Below are positions 7,461-23,996 of a stretch of DNA of 43,041 nucleotides, piece by piece. The notes below the pieces were generated by a model. That model was not told the DNA's origin. It saw only the letters and a program-made list of their open reading frames with translations, and did no database searches. Both the position numbers and the translations under genes were made by a program. The stretch comes from a virus (lineage: Duplodnaviria; Heunggongvirae; Uroviricota; Caudoviricetes), in the IMG/VR virus record IMGVR_UViG_2744054964_000002, positions 1 to 43,041 of that record. One strand, written 5' to 3'. The first letter of the stretch is position 1; each line of letters begins with the position of its first letter.

Positions 7461-7667
7461 ATGGAACGAGATGAACGTGCAGATGAACGAATAGCCTTCA
7501 TGGCTGGAGAGGTTGGGTGCGTAGTGTTCGAGCTGGTTTATAACGGAATTGAAATCAATAAGGACAACATTGTGGGATTTCTGGAAGGGAAGCGCAAAGC
7601 CGTAGGAAACGTGATCCATAAGGGGATGCTACGGGATGCGGCTGAGATGGTGCGGAAGGGCAAATAA
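7461..7667 (+). CDS. Hypothetical protein (68 aa)
   Basis: ATG at 7461 preceded by AGGAGG RBS and an extended -10 like element (TGcTATGCT, 7429-7437); convergent with the cI-adjacent cassette. Confidence 0.4.
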   Translation: MERDERADERIAFMAGEVGCVVFELVYNGIEINKDNIVGFLEGKRKAVGNVIHKGMLRDAAEMVRKGK

Positions 7668-7686
7668 AAACCCGGCGCTGGCCGGG
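7662..7686 (-). terminator. Rho-independent terminator ending the cI-adjacent cassette
   Basis: Perfect 6-bp GC stem CCCGGC-GCUG-GCCGGG (7671-7686) followed on the minus strand by UUUUUAUUU, starting 8 nt after the stop of the 7695-8045 gene. Confidence 0.6.
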
Positions 7687-7694
7687 TGATAGCG

Positions 7695-8045
7695 CTATTT
7701 CAAAACAAGTCCGTTTAAAGCATCAAGAATTTTAGAAACATAATTACCGAATACATAAACACAAAAAGCAAACACAACTGATAGAATGGCAGAAGAAGCT
7801 TTAAGTGTTGTCTTCATGGATTTTACTCCATTTTCGATTTCACTCAGCCTTGAGTCGATGCTCTTAATGTCTGATTTAATCTCAGCAATATCTCGCTTAA
7901 TGTATTCTACATCGGATTCTAAGCGTGCAACTCTGTATTGCATGTCATCGCCTCCGCCATTACCGTTGCCATGCCTCAAAGTATGCACGTTGAATTCTTC
8001 GTTAGCAACTGGTTGGCTTCGTTTGAGATATGCTGAATTTGCCAT
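7695..8045 (-). CDS. Coiled-coil protein with C-terminal transmembrane helix (XhlA-like architecture); cassette gene B
   Basis: 116-aa ORF; Gly-rich N-terminus (HGNGNGGGDD), heptad-like coiled coil (RLESDVEYIKRDIAEIKSDIKSIDSRLSEIENGVKSMK), hydrophobic C-terminal segment (AILSVVFAFCVYVFGNYV). Start is 1 nt after the stop of gene A. AT-rich by eye. Confidence 0.6.
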   Translation of the reverse strand: MANSAYLKRSQPVANEEFNVHTLRHGNGNGGGDDMQYRVARLESDVEYIKRDIAEIKSDIKSIDSRLSEIENGVKSMKTTLKASSAILSVVFAFCVYVFGNYVSKILDALNGLVLK

Positions 8046-8046
8046 G

Positions 8047-8472
8047 TCAGACTTTCCATTCTTTTGATAAGTAGAAATAACACTCTGAATCGTGAACTAA
8101 TCTACTTTTATCTTTATCATCAATGACATGAAGTGACAGTGTTACCTTGTAAACACCCTCTTCTTTAACAAGGATGTTCATCAGAGACATATTTTCAATG
8201 CTTACTGACTCACTTCCAGAGGTCGTGCCAGCCACAATAGGGTCTGATTGCAATGACTGACCACTACCGAAATCAATTCTCTGGTCGCCAAAAAATAGGT
8301 CTACATCAACACGATAGTTAACTTTAGTTTTAATAATTAGCCCAAAGGAAACGTCAATGCTGATTTTCCCTGAGTGCTCATCTGGCTTTATCCATGGCTG
8401 TGGATAATTTAAGGAGCGCGATATTTTACCGGGAAATATCTGGGATACATATAAAAATGAAATCTTTTCCAT
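8047..8472 (-). CDS. Hypothetical protein (141 aa); cassette gene A
   Basis: ORF with GAGGA RBS 6 nt upstream of the ATG, 72 bp downstream of the cI stop; AT-rich codon usage by eye; no recognised domain. Confidence 0.6.
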   Translation of the reverse strand: MEKISFLYVSQIFPGKISRSLNYPQPWIKPDEHSGKISIDVSFGLIIKTKVNYRVDVDLFFGDQRIDFGSGQSLQSDPIVAGTTSGSESVSIENMSLMNILVKEEGVYKVTLSLHVIDDKDKSRLVHDSECYFYLSKEWKV

Positions 8473-8544
8473 CGCTTATCCTCGTTAGCAAGCTATTTGT
8501 TACCAGATCTTCCCATGATCACTAACCCATCAGCATCTTCGTCT

Positions 8545-13427: not shown

Positions 13428-13843
13428 GCAACATCAACAAACAGGAGTTGCGCAGAACATCCGATCGCGACTGGTTTGAGGATTGGTTTAAGCGAGAATT
13501 CCATCCAGATAAGACAGGCCCATATATCAAAGACCAGCTGTTCTTTGCTGTACTGGCTGCAAGAGCGCCGCTGCTGGATGAGCTGGAAGCCGCAGAGAAG
13601 CGGATTGCAGAGCTGGAGGCACGGGAAGTGAAATTGCCTAATCCTCATGCTCACCTCATCTGGATTCAGGCAGGCCATGCCCCTGATGACTATTGGGATG
13701 ATGTTGCCGTTTCTCATAGCGAAAAGGATAAGTGCTGCGACGGTTCAGATCGCTATCCGGTTTATACTCTCTGGGAAATCAAAGAGGCACTATCTGCTAT
13801 TGGCATCAACATCGCCGCAGCCGGTAAAGGAGAGGACTCATGA
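13424..13843 (+). CDS. Hypothetical protein (139 aa)
   Basis: ORF with ATGA coupling on both sides; no recognised motif. Confidence 0.5.
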   Translation: MSNINKQELRRTSDRDWFEDWFKREFHPDKTGPYIKDQLFFAVLAARAPLLDELEAAEKRIAELEAREVKLPNPHAHLIWIQAGHAPDDYWDDVAVSHSEKDKCCDGSDRYPVYTLWEIKEALSAIGINIAAAGKGEDS

Positions 13844-14598
13844 GCACTATTGCCCGAGAATTCACCAAAGAGCAGTTACAGCAAATTATCGAAACTGACC
13901 ACGTTCAATGCGGTGAGGCTTCGGCGCTGGCGCGTATCGCGCTGGCATCGCTCGAAGCGGAGCCTGTGGCGTGGCTACTGTCAGGAGGCGGCGCAAAAAA
14001 CAACGTCAGCTTCGATAGTGGCAATGCTTATGCCGACCCGCTGCGAGAAGTAACGCCGCTTTACACCGCCCCTCCAGCGCCGGTATCTGTGCCTGATGAG
14101 ATGGAAATGGATGATGACTTTGACAGCGCGTTTGAGCATGGAAAAGCAGTCGGCTGGAACGCCTGCCGCGCCGCCATGCTTCAGGGTGCCGAACCTGTAA
14201 ACCAGAACGATGAGTTACCGCTGGACTATCTGCAAGGCCACAAAGACGGGCTGGAGTGGTCGGCACAACTGGCAGAAGCCAATCATCCGCAAACAGGTGA
14301 CTGGTTGTACGATGACCCAATCGAGCTTGCTAGGGCGATTCGCAAAGGTCCGGATATGCCTACAGCTCAGGATGGCAACTCTCCGGTAACTCCAGATGGT
14401 TGGATTCCGGTAAGCGAGCGGATGCCAAATGATAAAGACTTTGTATGGTGTTGGGGATATGTCTCTGGGTGGACGGAATCAGATGGCTTTGAAGCTTACT
14501 ACGACGCAACTAGAAACAAATGGTGGACCATAGATGACGAAACGGTTCGAAAGGTAACACACTGGATGCCACTTCCAGCAGCACCTCTGTGGGAATGA
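13840..14598 (+). CDS. Hypothetical protein with C-terminal DUF551-like domain
   Basis: 252-aa ORF; C-terminal GWIPVSERMPNDKDFVWCWGY...WWTIDDETVRKVTHWMPLPAAP matches the Trp-rich DUF551 pattern common in lambdoid nin regions. Confidence 0.55.
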   Translation: MSTIAREFTKEQLQQIIETDHVQCGEASALARIALASLEAEPVAWLLSGGGAKNNVSFDSGNAYADPLREVTPLYTAPPAPVSVPDEMEMDDDFDSAFEHGKAVGWNACRAAMLQGAEPVNQNDELPLDYLQGHKDGLEWSAQLAEANHPQTGDWLYDDPIELARAIRKGPDMPTAQDGNSPVTPDGWIPVSERMPNDKDFVWCWGYVSGWTESDGFEAYYDATRNKWWTIDDETVRKVTHWMPLPAAPLWE

Positions 14599-14659
14599 TG
14601 TATAATCCATCTCAATTTATTTAGAGAATTTACTATCACGTATAATGGGAATCGAGTAA

Positions 14660-14944
14660 ATGAGATGGATTTTAGCAATGGCGTTAGTTATGCCAATTTC
14701 AACTTCAATTGCAAAAAACAATGACTCATTTGATTACAAAAGAAAAACAGAGTCAGTTTGCTTTGACCCATCCAATAAAGAAAAGCAAGATTTATGTGAA
14801 AAAATAGTTAAGTCAATGCTGTTGAATGCCGCCTTTGCTGGTTACTCAGAGGCGGCATGTACTGCTAAAATTGTAAAAGATAAACAACGGTGTAAAGCAA
14901 CAGAAGAAGAATACCAAGAATTAATTAGATTCAGCATGCCATAA
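14660..14944 (+). CDS. Small secreted Cys-containing protein (94 aa), AT-rich moron
   Basis: N-terminal signal-peptide-like MRWILAMALVMPISTSIA; four Cys; low GC by eye; two TATAAT hexamers upstream (14605-14610, 14641-14646). Confidence 0.5.
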   Translation: MRWILAMALVMPISTSIAKNNDSFDYKRKTESVCFDPSNKEKQDLCEKIVKSMLLNAAFAGYSEAACTAKIVKDKQRCKATEEEYQELIRFSMP

Positions 14945-15122
14945 ATTGATTTTCCAGAATCAACCCTCCATAATCATGTCATCGGAGCCTGAACAACTCC
15001 GGTGACTTCTGCGCATTTAAGGGGACTTAAATGCGACCACAATCTGAACTCCTCACCTTGTCACAGATGCAGAAATGCACCTGCGATTTTCTGCATTCTG
15101 CGTTACCTCTCGGAGGTGGCGT

Positions 15123-15572
15123 ATGAAGCAGCACTACTGCATCGTTAACGACACCGTTAAAGACAACCTCATCGCGTACATTCGCACCCTACCGGTAAAC
15201 CCTCGTGCGCCAATGGTGGTCGAGGCTCGGGAAGAGACCCGCACCGACAAGCAAAATCGTTTGATGTGGCCGCTGCTGAAAGACCTGTCTGACCAGGTTG
15301 TCTGGCACGGCGAGAAGTTGACCCGCGAAGAGTGGAAGGACCTCATCACCGTTCTGGTGAATCAGACCCAGGACCAGGAACAGAAATCCGCGCCGGGCAT
15401 CAACGGCGGCCGCGTTTATTTCGGCGTCCGCACATCCAAATCCAGCAAGCGTTACATGGTCGATGTGATCGAGGCGATTTACTGGTTCGGTACCGACCGC
15501 GGCGTGAAGTTCTCCGAAGCATCCAATAAGCGCATCGCCTGGGCGCAAGAGTGGAGGACTTCCCGTGGGTAA
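15123..15572 (+). CDS. ninB: NinB (Orf-family recombination mediator)
   Basis: Internal ATG at 15123 after GGAGGTGG RBS; DKQNRLMWPLLKDLSDQVVWHGEKLTREEWKDLI...GVKFSEASNKRIAWAQEWR aligns by eye with lambda NinB. Confidence 0.85.
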   Translation: MKQHYCIVNDTVKDNLIAYIRTLPVNPRAPMVVEAREETRTDKQNRLMWPLLKDLSDQVVWHGEKLTREEWKDLITVLVNQTQDQEQKSAPGINGGRVYFGVRTSKSSKRYMVDVIEAIYWFGTDRGVKFSEASNKRIAWAQEWRTSRG

Positions 15573-17844: not shown

Positions 17845-17897
17845 TCATGTAAATCTGATATCGTCGCCATAGCTTCGTAGGTCGACAAAGAATTAAG

Positions 17898-17922
17898 AAC
17901 CCGCCATCGAGCGGGTTTTTTG
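17898..17922 (+). terminator. Rho-independent terminator (tR'-like)
   Basis: CCCGC-CATCGA-GCGGG stem-loop followed by TTTTTTG, about 50-70 nt downstream of the candidate pR' start. Confidence 0.65.
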
Positions 17923-21983: not shown

Positions 21984-22622
21984 ATGGCAACACTCAAAGA
22001 CCTTTCTCAGCAATTAAAGAAGGTACAAAAGCAGGTGCCATATGCTACAGCACTAGCTATGACAAAAGTTGTTCGTCAAATAGAAACGGCACAGAAAACA
22101 GCGTTCGAACGACATCTGGAGAGCCCGACACCGTTTACCGTTAAATCAGTTGGTTCGGTGGCGGCAAGGAAGAACAACCTGACTGCAAAGGTTTTTGTCC
22201 GCGATACCGCGGCTGGTTATCTGGAACCATTCGAGTTAGGTGGAGAGCATAAGCTCAATAGCCAAGCGCTATTGAACCCCAAGAACGTCAAGCTAAACAA
22301 ATACGGCAACATGCCGCGTAATAAGCTCTCACAGCTTAAAGCAAAGGAAAATGTATTCGTAGGTGAGGTTGATGGCGTTAACGCTGTCTGGCAGCGTAAG
22401 AAGCCGATGAAAGCTAAGAAGCGACGGGCCAAACGTTCCGCTAACGGGACGCGAAGACCGAAACGCAAACAGCGTTCTCCAAAGCTTTTGATCCGGTTTG
22501 GTGATGCGCTACCTGTGACTCCAGTGCTGGGGTATATGGATAGGGCCCGTACCATGGCGAACGCACTGCTACCGTCTGCTTTAAATCAGGCGATAGCAGA
22601 AGCCATCAGGACGGCAAAATAA
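21984..22622 (+). CDS. Hypothetical protein with basic Lys/Arg-rich segment (212 aa)
   Basis: Internal ATG at 21984 (the upstream part of the track ORF contains the terminator); KKPMKAKKRRAKRSANGTRRPKRKQR basic tract; no confident family. Confidence 0.5.
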   Translation: MATLKDLSQQLKKVQKQVPYATALAMTKVVRQIETAQKTAFERHLESPTPFTVKSVGSVAARKNNLTAKVFVRDTAAGYLEPFELGGEHKLNSQALLNPKNVKLNKYGNMPRNKLSQLKAKENVFVGEVDGVNAVWQRKKPMKAKKRRAKRSANGTRRPKRKQRSPKLLIRFGDALPVTPVLGYMDRARTMANALLPSALNQAIAEAIRTAK

Positions 22623-22632
22623 AAGCAGTAAC

Positions 22633-23136
22633 TTATAAGTTAATTTCGCAAGCTTTTATGAAGCTGTTTACTGCAGTTGTCGATCCAGAAACATTGGCTG
22701 ACATGGAATGCTGGTTTCCGCCATCCTTTGTTTGCACACCAACTAACACTTTGGATTTCGCCCCCTGAAGCTGCTTAAGCACTGTTTTTAGTTGGTCCGC
22801 GTCATCCGATTGAATCTGGAGGCTCTGAACATTACGTCTTGAAAGGGTAGCATCGAGCTTCACTGCGGTATTCCCGTCGACCTTCATTATCAGGTCCATT
22901 GGTACCTCTGATAGTGATTCGGTGCTTTTATCCATTTCAACGTATGCCGCCGATAGCTTTTCTTTAGTGCAGTCAAACACAATGGCGCCATTGTCGGATG
23001 AAACCTCGCCAAGCATCATTGCTTTCTTACCACCAGAGAAAAGGTCATCTTCAGTATTAGTTACCCACTGGGCATGAGCAATTGGTGATGCCAGCACTGC
23101 GGCTACGAAAGTTATTTTGATTATATTGTTACCCAT
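22633..23136 (-). CDS. Secreted hypothetical protein (167 aa), opposite-strand moron between lysis genes and cos
   Basis: ATG at 23134-23136 after AAGGAG RBS; N-terminal signal peptide MGNNIIKITFVAAVLASPIAHA; only minus-strand gene in the late region, in the position bor occupies in lambda. Confidence 0.55.
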   Translation of the reverse strand: MGNNIIKITFVAAVLASPIAHAQWVTNTEDDLFSGGKKAMMLGEVSSDNGAIVFDCTKEKLSAAYVEMDKSTESLSEVPMDLIMKVDGNTAVKLDATLSRRNVQSLQIQSDDADQLKTVLKQLQGAKSKVLVGVQTKDGGNQHSMSANVSGSTTAVNSFIKACEINL

Positions 23137-23229
23137 TACATTCTCCTTGTATTGAATAGGAATAATCATAGTCGGAGCGAATGGTCGAAGCCAATAAAAA
23201 AATGGGTCCTTCCTGAGACTTTTGTAAGG

Positions 23230-23260
23230 TACGGGCATTGCGCGCCGCGGTGTTTTCCTA
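23230..23260. other. Candidate cosN-like region
   Basis: GC-rich GGGCATTGCGCGCCGCGGTGTTTTCCTAGCTA resembles, from memory, the lambda left cohesive end (GGGCGGCGACCTCGCGGGTTTTCGCTA); lies about 170 bp upstream of the small terminase gene. Confidence 0.3.
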
Positions 23261-23279
23261 GCTACAACTTTCAGATTTG

Positions 23280-23427
23280 TGTCCCATGTCCCACCTCTGG
23301 CGATCATTACGGACACCTCGCCAGCTCTGGCTATTCCAGTTTATTCCAGTGGGACATTCTGGTGGGACATGGCAAAAATGTCCCAGGCGAATGTCCCACC
23401 CCAGAAAATGTCCCAGGTGATGTCCCA
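23280..23427 (+). repeat. Array of eight TGTCCCA / TGGGACA heptamers (candidate cosB-type small-terminase binding sites)
   Basis: TGTCCCA at 23280, 23287, 23379, 23392, 23409, 23421; inverted TGGGACA at 23350, 23363; the last copy abuts the terminase small subunit start codon. Confidence 0.6.
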
Positions 23428-23996
23428 TGACCACGATGAACCAGAGTCAGTACGCACAACATTCAGGTGTGGATCGCAAAACAATTGGTCGGTGGATTAA
23501 AGCCGGGCGCTTCATTGTGATGGACGGAGACCTGATTGACGTAGAGGCCAGCGATGCGGCATTGAAGAAAAACCGCGATGGCAAAGACCCGCGCGCCTCG
23601 AACGCGAAGAAAAAGAAAACTCCCGTCGTTAGCGATAACGATGATGACGGTGATGAAATCAATAAAACTGTCCGCCAGATAATGCTCACTGAAGGGGCAG
23701 ATCTTTCGAGAGAGGAAGCGGGACGTATCCGCGAGAATTACATGGCCCTGCAGGCAAAGCTGCAGTATGAAAAAGACAGCGGCCAGCTTATTGAGCTGAC
23801 AGCAGCCGAGGAGGTTTTATTCAACGCCTTTCGCCAACAGCGTGATGCCTGGCTTAACTGGCCGTCCAGGGTGGCGCCGCTAATGGCTGCTGATCTGGAT
23901 GTACCGGCGGACAGGATGACAGAGGTGCTGATTGAACATGTCCACAAACACATCTCAGTCCTCGGAGAGCCAGAGTTTAACCCGGCAGAAGATTGA
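23427..23996 (+). CDS. Terminase small subunit (lambda Nu1-like)
   Basis: 189-aa ORF; N-terminal HTH-like YAQHSGVDRKTIGRWIKAG similar to Nu1 N-terminus; immediately upstream of the large terminase. Confidence 0.75.
   Translation: MTTMNQSQYAQHSGVDRKTIGRWIKAGRFIVMDGDLIDVEASDAALKKNRDGKDPRASNAKKKKTPVVSDNDDDGDEINKTVRQIMLTEGADLSREEAGRIRENYMALQAKLQYEKDSGQLIELTAAEEVLFNAFRQQRDAWLNWPSRVAPLMAADLDVPADRMTEVLIEHVHKHISVLGEPEFNPAED

Follow-up and report, generated by a model that had tools for sequence, protein, structure and literature searches.

Phage morons in the sense of Hendrix and Juhala, exemplified by bor and lom of lambda and by gp15 of HK97, are extra genes of low GC content that some phages carry and their close relatives lack at the same site, and that encode small envelope-targeted proteins. 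The gene described here, a 94-amino-acid (aa) open reading frame (ORF) lying just upstream of ninB, resembles the morons on each of these counts, its envelope targeting being predicted. It differs from them in having neither a terminator of its own nor a demonstrable promoter, and its locus looks like a decayed two-gene cassette from which a gene resembling the theta subunit of DNA polymerase III has been lost. The small periplasmic superinfection-exclusion proteins of the T4 Spackle (Sp) type, which we take to be of similar size, each with a signal peptide that can be cleaved, a mature domain of helices, and Cys residues capable of forming disulfides, offer a second comparison. It is one of functional analogy and not of membership: sequence and profile searches of the PDB with the 94-aa protein returned 0 chains at E ≤ 10. 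PHROG 19412, RefSeq WP_126956149.1, and gp52 of Salmonella phage SEN34, on the other hand, belong to the same protein family as the cargo protein, with no difference to report.

The DNA that follows the cargo gene, which we call the leader, has described relatives of its own. The orf33 region of phage 82 and IR4 of phi80 are the same DNA element, at 80 to 96% identity, for which the respective records offer no more than the labels putative promoter, "possible regulator-binding site," or inverted repeat. Like tR2 of lambda, the leader stands directly upstream of a gene of the orf/ninB family. Unlike tR2, to which its sequence is unrelated, it combines a promoter-like box with three hairpins that covary and with a translationally coupled ORF of 31 to 33 codons, and hairpin 3 alone is weakly terminator-like.

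Throughout, "the window" denotes the whole stretch of viral DNA that was analyzed (43,041 nucleotides [nt]; IMG/VR record IMGVR_UViG_2744054964_000002). We consider it probable that the 94-aa ORF is a rare moron-type gene for an exported four-Cys protein, seated in a hypervariable slot of a lambda-like Escherichia coli prophage. The original prediction, made from the letters of the window and their translated frames, had described an AT-rich moron with its own promoter that encodes a small secreted protein; every element that it listed is present in the sequence, with coordinates shifted by 1 to 2 bases (Table 1). As a gene, the cargo is ordinary, one more small prophage protein with predicted secretion and already catalogued as hypothetical; it is also a candidate for functions at the level of the envelope, in phage-host interaction or bacterial competition. 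The slot upstream of the ninB/ybcN leader is a convenient place for mining accessory genes, and the structured leader is the more interesting by-product, the covariation in its three hairpins being exceptionally clear.

Table 1. Coordinates in the window of the cargo gene, its neighbors, and the leader
Feature	Position	Strand	Details
Upstream gene	13840-14598	+	Pfam DUF551, E = 1.2e-13, residues 187-249
DUF551-domain 3' end of upstream gene	14404-14598	+	No DNA homology in "empty" prophages
60-bp AT-rich spacer	14599-14659	+	TATAAT at 14601-14606 and 14641-14646
94-aa ORF	14660-14944	+	Stop codon 14942-14944; Cys at residues 34, 46, 67, and 78
Signal peptide of 94-aa ORF	14660-14713	+	Predicted cleavage SIA|K
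Antisense promoter-like site	14669-14696	-	TTGGCA-16-TAAAAT with upstream TG; within signal-peptide codons; 10/12 matches in scan
Promoter-like box	14946-14974	+	TTGATT-17-CATAAT, from scan; begins one base after ORF stop codon
Palindrome	14946-14963	+	TTGATT-N6-AATCAA (TTGAT-N8-ATCAA); overlaps -35 of leader box
Leader hairpin 1	14978-15006	+	GTCATCGGAG / loop CCTGAACAA / CTCCGGTGAC
Leader hairpin 2	15012-15035	+	CGCATTTAAG-GGGA-CTTAAATGCG; perfect 10-bp arms, no T-run after
31-codon leader ORF	15031-15126	+	Counterpart of phage 82 orf33; stop overlaps ninB start (ATGA)
Leader hairpin 3	15064-15083	+	CAGaTGCA-GAAA-TGCAcCTG, then CGATTTTCT; weakly terminator-like
ninB	15123-15572	+	Pfam NinB, E = 4.5e-50; RefSeq; Orf-family recombination mediator, first gene of nin operon

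Composition and occupancy of the site upstream of ninB

The sharp drop in GC content that had been noticed by eye between the DUF551 gene and ninB is borne out by measurement. Over 14600-14945 the fraction of GC falls to 0.332, whereas the window as a whole averages 0.519 (z = -3.6); just 0.1% of all 346-bp segments reach so low a value, and no stretch of the window is more AT-rich. The ORF itself has a GC fraction of 0.32 to 0.40 in five genomic backgrounds, 12 to 18 points below its flanks, and its low GC persists even where it is coupled to a theta-like gene of normal GC. We rejected a low-GC donor genome as the source of this AT-richness, the five backgrounds all being 47 to 52% GC. Low GC content is a lasting trait of the gene and no proof that it arrived recently. 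The window contains a second strongly AT-rich block at 7659-8532, which holds hypothetical genes at 7695-8045 and 8047-8472 on the minus strand and sits directly downstream of a LexA-family (CI-type) repressor gene, a rexAB-like position; this block gave a weak XhlA-like Pfam match (2e-4, below the cut-off) and no convincing PADLOC match.

A prophage of E. coli strain 88COLEC matches the region with 100% identity, and the ORF is present in 2 of 5,426 complete E. coli genomes, the second carrier, PCP06021, having ybcN in place of ninB downstream of the leader. In one related prophage (L005) and in phi80 the flanks are joined directly, leaving an empty site, and in two others (L006 and L007) unrelated genes, and hence alternative cargo, lie between them. 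The blastn homology to these four sequences ends at 14398-14403 and resumes at 14944-14959, which delimits a lineage-specific block of ~540 bp. This block takes in the end of the upstream gene that encodes the DUF551 domain, then the spacer and the ORF, its AT-rich portion being the final ~340 bp. None of ~120 further leader-bearing viral loci carries the 94-aa ORF, and pattern scans for related loci in genome and viral contigs confirmed no relatives. Present in some phages, absent from the same site in close relatives, and distinct in composition from the genome around it, the ORF is, by these comparisons, a rare accessory cargo gene of the moron type. The original prediction was right in calling it an accessory cargo gene, and a comparison of related prophages, which that prediction had proposed as a check, found the site empty or otherwise filled. 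Its placement of the gene inside the nin region needs adjustment: the gene is better described as lying at the boundary of that region, immediately upstream of an element that occupies the position of the lambda ren-ninB terminator.

The slot that the ORF occupies is bounded on one side by the accessory genes downstream of the replication genes and on the other by the 5' edge of the leader before ninB, which it abuts. In the 47 loci whose upstream sequence was long enough, the genes that immediately precede the leader sort into 31 unrelated clusters. They mostly encode 50 to 110 aa and have a GC content below that of their surroundings, and the 350 nt before the leader are <40% GC in 38 of 124 loci. 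These counts mark the slot 5' of the leader (~14600-14945 in the window; compared across loci L030 to L149) as a hypervariable cargo hotspot. The 94-aa ORF, one of many alternative cargoes, has the clearest signal-peptide-like N terminus among them, although a few of the other cargo proteins likewise start with a hydrophobic stretch.

The TATAAT spacer, the theta-like gene, and transcription of the cargo gene

Both of the TATAAT hexamers reported upstream of the ORF are present in the 60-bp spacer. The window has four plus-strand copies of this hexamer in 43 kb, two of them inside these 60 nt, where local composition predicts 0.076 copies (P of at least two, ~0.003, a post-hoc figure). Neither copy has an acceptable -35 element at 16 to 18 bp, and on the plus strand a promoter scan called nothing upstream of the 94-aa ORF.

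Comparison with other carriers suggests where the spacer came from. The ORF follows directly behind a theta-like gene in SEN34, in the Citrobacter prophages, and in two further loci (L017 and L018), and that gene is absent before the ORF in the window. The sequence TGA|TGTATAATCCATCTCAA (14596-14615) matches the Citrobacter locus L012 at 18 of 20 nt, and in L012 the counterpart of TGATGTATAATCCATCTCAA follows another gene's stop codon and precedes the theta-like start by ~35 nt. Beyond this match, the alignment of the spacer with L012 consists of short colinear theta fragments and of the theta 3' end with its Shine-Dalgarno (SD) region, the part that corresponds to the second TATAAT of the window. 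At empty sites the homologous junction is TGATGCAGAACCCAT, which has no -10 consensus, and the hexamer equivalent to the first TATAAT is CAGAAC. The spacer is probably the scar of a deletion of the theta-like gene in which the 5' edge of the cassette was kept, a reading that rests on one strong 20-nt match and a set of short fragments.

An apparently undecayed form of the cassette is found in L018, where the ATG of the ORF overlaps the theta stop codon (TAATG) with a strong SD in front. This overlap implies co-transcription, and any promoter in L018 must accordingly lie upstream of theta. A promoter-like CTGACC-17-TATACT is indeed found there, in L018 alone among SEN34, the Citrobacter prophages, L017, and L018, and an intrinsic-terminator-like site follows the ORF. 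As judged by these signals, L018 is a complete two-gene moron; SEN34 has a terminator-like site after the ORF only. Theta-like genes are seen repeatedly around the beginning of the nin region, in HK639 (L024), in Klebsiella phages (L028 and L029), in L008, and in L009 to L018. In HK639 and the Klebsiella phages the theta-like gene precedes the ninB leader by no more than a few hundred bases, with a small gene in between in HK639, and in Citrobacter loci of the L009 type it is truncated to 47 aa.

These observations bear directly on the claim of the original prediction that the cargo is independently transcribed. In its full form, this reading makes the gene a self-contained moron, driven by its own sigma-70 promoter at one or both of the TATAAT hexamers, expressed from the repressed prophage as a lysogenic-conversion gene, and ended by the downstream hairpin. 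Two perfect -10 hexamers within 60 nt would fit such a unit, as would the promoter-like site upstream of theta in L018 and the terminators behind the ORF in L018 and SEN34. The first TATAAT, conserved at the 5' edge of the Citrobacter cassette where empty sites have CAGAAC, gains some promoter credibility from that conservation, and the spacer possibly contains a putative weak promoter with a -10 element only. Against self-containment stand the missing -35, the silence of the promoter scan, and the L018 overlap, which ties the ORF to transcription with theta. The hairpin, moreover, is backbone DNA common to phages that have no ORF; it has an AU-rich stem and no U-run, and the leader ORF has its start codon there. 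Between the 94-aa ORF and ninB the window has no terminator, the terminator scan having found none between the ORF stop (14944) and the backbone box (14946), and terminators follow the ORF in L018 and SEN34 only. We regard a self-contained unit as unlikely.

Under the reading that we prefer, a moron-type gene in a hypervariable slot, the theta-like gene would have been deleted in the lineage of the window, leaving the 60-bp scar with both hexamers. The ORF would then be transcribed mainly within the early rightward (pR) transcript, since it lies upstream of the element at the tR2 position, and the TATAAT at 14601 may contribute weak independent transcription. A strong antisense promoter-like site inside the ORF (Table 1) has an equivalent in Citrobacter L012 (4037->4010) and may be a mere by-product of AT-rich coding sequence.

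The structured leader before ninB and ybcN

We gathered leaders by their core motif, which yielded 132 copies from other phage and prophage sequences, 112 of them unique. Covariation was scored by folding each sequence individually and by examining positions left free by the search pattern; the columns of MAFFT alignments mis-register hairpin 2 between leader types. In this comparison the leader is made up of a promoter-like box, three covarying hairpins, and a coupled ORF of 31 to 33 codons. Across 59 non-redundant leaders the ATAAT of the box hardly varies (at least 90% conservation), and the phage 82 record X92588 annotates the box as a putative -35/-10. The palindrome that overlaps its -35 has conserved arms and a variable center in most leaders of the E. 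coli type and is missing from those of the Klebsiella type.

The hairpins change in sequence while retaining their pairing. Hairpin 1 has 43 different 5' arms, forms at least 7 bp in 109 of the 112 unique leaders, and keeps a loop with the consensus YYUGAAC. Hairpin 2, with 11 different arm sequences, forms at least 9 bp in every one of the 112 and scores z = -3 to -6 against shuffles; its loop is an invariant, SD-like GGGA or GGGGA, and its 3' arm nearly always contains ATG or GTG, which in the window is the ATG of the leader ORF. For hairpin 3, three position pairs that the search pattern leaves unconstrained are complementary in 111 of 112 leaders (mean of 59 and maximum of 67 when partners are shuffled), and a terminator-like scan site at 15068-15085 overlaps it with a different 5-bp stem. 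The leader ORF is open, with its stop overlapping the following start (ATGA or GTGA), in 109 of the 112.

From 14946 onward the DNA is 80 to 96% identical in a range of phages without the 94-aa ORF, among them HK639, phage 82, phi80, HK225, and Klebsiella phage KO-TP1, and hairpin 2, as conserved backbone DNA in phages without the ORF, therefore belongs to the leader and not to the cargo. The original prediction had described this hairpin correctly, as a perfect 10-bp stem without a T-run, and had listed it with the cargo gene, to which it belongs neither as a part nor as a terminator; it is one of the three covarying stem-loops of the ninB/ybcN leader. Nor does it look like an intrinsic terminator: the center of its stem is AU-rich, no T-run follows, and the terminator scan is silent there.

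Hairpin 2 has been labeled "IR4" in the phi80 record and "possible regulator-binding site" in that of phage 82, and the element could act at the DNA level, as an operator bound by a regulatory protein, instead of as an RNA structure. The perfect palindrome, annotated as such a site in X92588, and its location downstream of a promoter-like box are what an operator would predict. The 11 arm sequences, however, keep their pairing while the sequence changes, which argues for a nucleic-acid structure and not for sequence-specific recognition by a protein, and the constant parts are the SD-like GGGA loop and the ATG or GTG of the 3' arm. A separate palindrome at 14946-14963 is the better operator-like candidate, and we think it improbable that hairpin 2 serves as one.

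The lambda ren-ninB intergenic region contains a strong intrinsic-terminator-like site, which we take to be tR2, and the leader by this correspondence occupies the tR2 position. In the DLP12 prophage of E. coli K-12, the 33-aa ylcH upstream of ybcN is presumably the counterpart of the phage 82 orf33 region; the gene downstream of the leader was ninB or ybcN in the loci checked. YbcN is described in PMC4118853 as a diverged Orf/NinB ortholog, and the text suggests that the operon is expressed adequately only when insertion mutations place an active promoter in front of it. If that is so, the conserved box at this place would not be a strong constitutive promoter.

Rfam gave no match at E ≤ 1 over 14400-15300, and the literature that we searched on phi80 IR4, on ylcH/ybcN, and on tR2/ninB contained no functional description of the leader, which appears to have been uncharacterized so far. 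We suggest tentatively, and with less than even confidence, that the leader is both functional as RNA and new to characterization. It would then be a cis-regulatory RNA, widespread in lambda-like phages, that gates the entry of transcription or translation into the nin/recombination operon. If it does regulate this entry, many lambdoid phages, phi80, 82, HK639, and HK225 among them, would have in it a point of control that has gone unstudied. Elsewhere in the window, the sole Rfam match to reach a gathering threshold is isrJ, an Hfq-binding small RNA, at 17848-17920 on the plus strand (58.7 bits against a gathering score of 37), in an AT-rich gap between the Q antiterminator and holin genes.

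The predicted exported protein and its possible role

The product of the 94-aa ORF begins MRWILAMALVMPISTSIA|KNND: residue 2 is basic, the hydrophobic core spans 11 residues, and small residues occupy positions -3 and -1; hydropathy over residues 1 to 11 is 1.84. Signal peptides were judged manually, by a basic n-region, an h-region of 7 to 15 residues, and small residues at -3/-1, together with conservation, and by this assessment MRWILAMALVMPISTSIA|K has the features of a Sec/signal peptidase I substrate. Most homologs have a basic residue 2, a hydrophobic core of ~11 to 13 residues, and small residues at -3/-1, though their N-terminal sequences diverge; the exceptions are P0005, with His at -3, and P0004, which is truncated at the N terminus. 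Features kept while the N-terminal sequence diverges argue for a cleavable Sec signal peptide. The predicted mature protein has 76 aa, a pI of 7.8, and a Lys-rich composition, and its Cys residues are spaced CX11C...CX10C, each interval amounting to about three helical turns. The small protein with a signal peptide and four Cys of the original prediction is thereby upheld, its Cys being invariant and its signal-peptide features being retained in most homologs.

The protein matches PHROG 19412 with E = 3e-30 (ORF residues 1-92 against profile positions 1-92 of 96), and by this alignment it is a member of a catalogued family to which no function is assigned. The known homologs comprise a metagenomic protein (99% identity), a Citrobacter protein found on 42 contigs (76%), gp52 of SEN34 (52%), and two more clusters (54 to 59%), and wherever the organism of a member is named, it is Escherichia, Citrobacter, or Salmonella. 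Among 1.84 billion representatives searched exhaustively with HMMER, only three proved to be true ones, a yield that makes the family tiny. A degenerate DNA pattern retrieved Citrobacter sedlakii only, plus one Muribaculum metagenome stretch that tblastn did not confirm. Pfam, NCBIfam, and PADLOC contain no family that the protein matches (0 hits in PADLOC). Several candidates were set aside. Two Calx-beta repeat proteins, P0006 (10 stretches) and P0007 (4), are spurious low-complexity matches without Cys in the matched repeats, their scores in the exhaustive profile search being sums over repeats. The weak HMM matches to TFIIS_M (E = 0.058) and to PHROGs 23744 and 34870 are non-informative, as is TIGR04450 (E = 0.008), which falls below the family cut-off and takes in the signal peptide.

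AlphaFold models of the full-length protein (four sequences) and of the mature domain (six) are all-helical, with three to four helices, at pLDDT of 47 and 51. The best Foldseek match in the PDB, obtained with a low-confidence model, has E = 3. Models this poor leave the fold unassigned and make the disulfide connectivity guesswork. The searches for homology and structure that had been proposed for this protein were thus productive in part, placing it in a small family and finding no fold relative.

The preferred reading of an exported moron product would have the 94-aa protein pass through Sec and be cleaved after Ala18, as predicted, and then be oxidized by DsbA, with two disulfides stapling what would be a small helical domain in the periplasm. 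Such a domain is suggested by the Cys spacing, by the helices predicted, and by the expected location in the periplasm. When phages carry genes for small periplasmic proteins as dispensable cargo, the products typically protect the envelope, and for this reason we rank envelope protection first among the roles that the protein could have. By analogy with those proteins, it could be a periplasmic binding or inhibitor protein that protects the envelope of the infected or lysogenic cell, for example, through superinfection exclusion or immunity against an incoming factor that targets the cell wall or envelope; we hold this specific role to be somewhat unlikely, even as the leading one. Searches with Pfam, NCBIfam, PADLOC, PDB sequences, and Foldseek gave no link to known exclusion, immunity, or inhibitor families. 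The protein may found a new family of disulfide-stapled, envelope-protecting periplasmic phage proteins.

The protein might instead serve the lytic program of the phage, influencing lysis timing or a spanin or endolysin step from the periplasm, and give the host no protection. Its predicted periplasmic location is compatible with such a role, and so is the position of its gene, which precedes Q and the lysis genes in the early rightward operon. The ORF is absent, however, from nearly all related prophages that have the same leader and nin genes, from which it follows that it is dispensable; it has no linkage to a lysis cassette, and the L018 copy lies near RecT and integrase genes, in a different region. 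A part in lysis is, to our minds, a poor prospect.

Comparison among homologs shows that the ORF is a genuine gene. The reading frame is intact in 16 of the 16 loci that carry the ORF, so that it is conserved in relatives as well as rare. Between the window and the 76%-identical Citrobacter homolog, dN/dS is 0.136 overall and 0.107 over the mature part (dS, 0.96; dN, 0.13). Homolog alignments contain 29 to 42 invariant columns, all four Cys included, and the Cys and signal-peptide features are conserved down to 52% identity. RefSeq annotates the ORF as a hypothetical protein, WP_126956149.1. These constraints mark the ORF as a real gene on which purifying selection acts. That it is an open frame arising by chance in AT-rich junk DNA, an idea to which its shortness, its lack of a Pfam family, and the low-confidence structure models might point, is effectively refuted by a dN/dS of 0.14 at a dS of ~0.96, by the intact frame in every carrier, and by the features kept to 52% identity, and deserves almost no credence.

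The window contains other annotations that touch on the interplay of phage and host. After the large terminase gene, RefSeq labels the gene at ~22021-23442 (16722-18143 in L003) "anti-CBASS protein Acb1 family protein," and a gene with a NUDIX domain stands two genes beyond it; the two annotations may denote true counter-defence genes or be carried over onto head genes.
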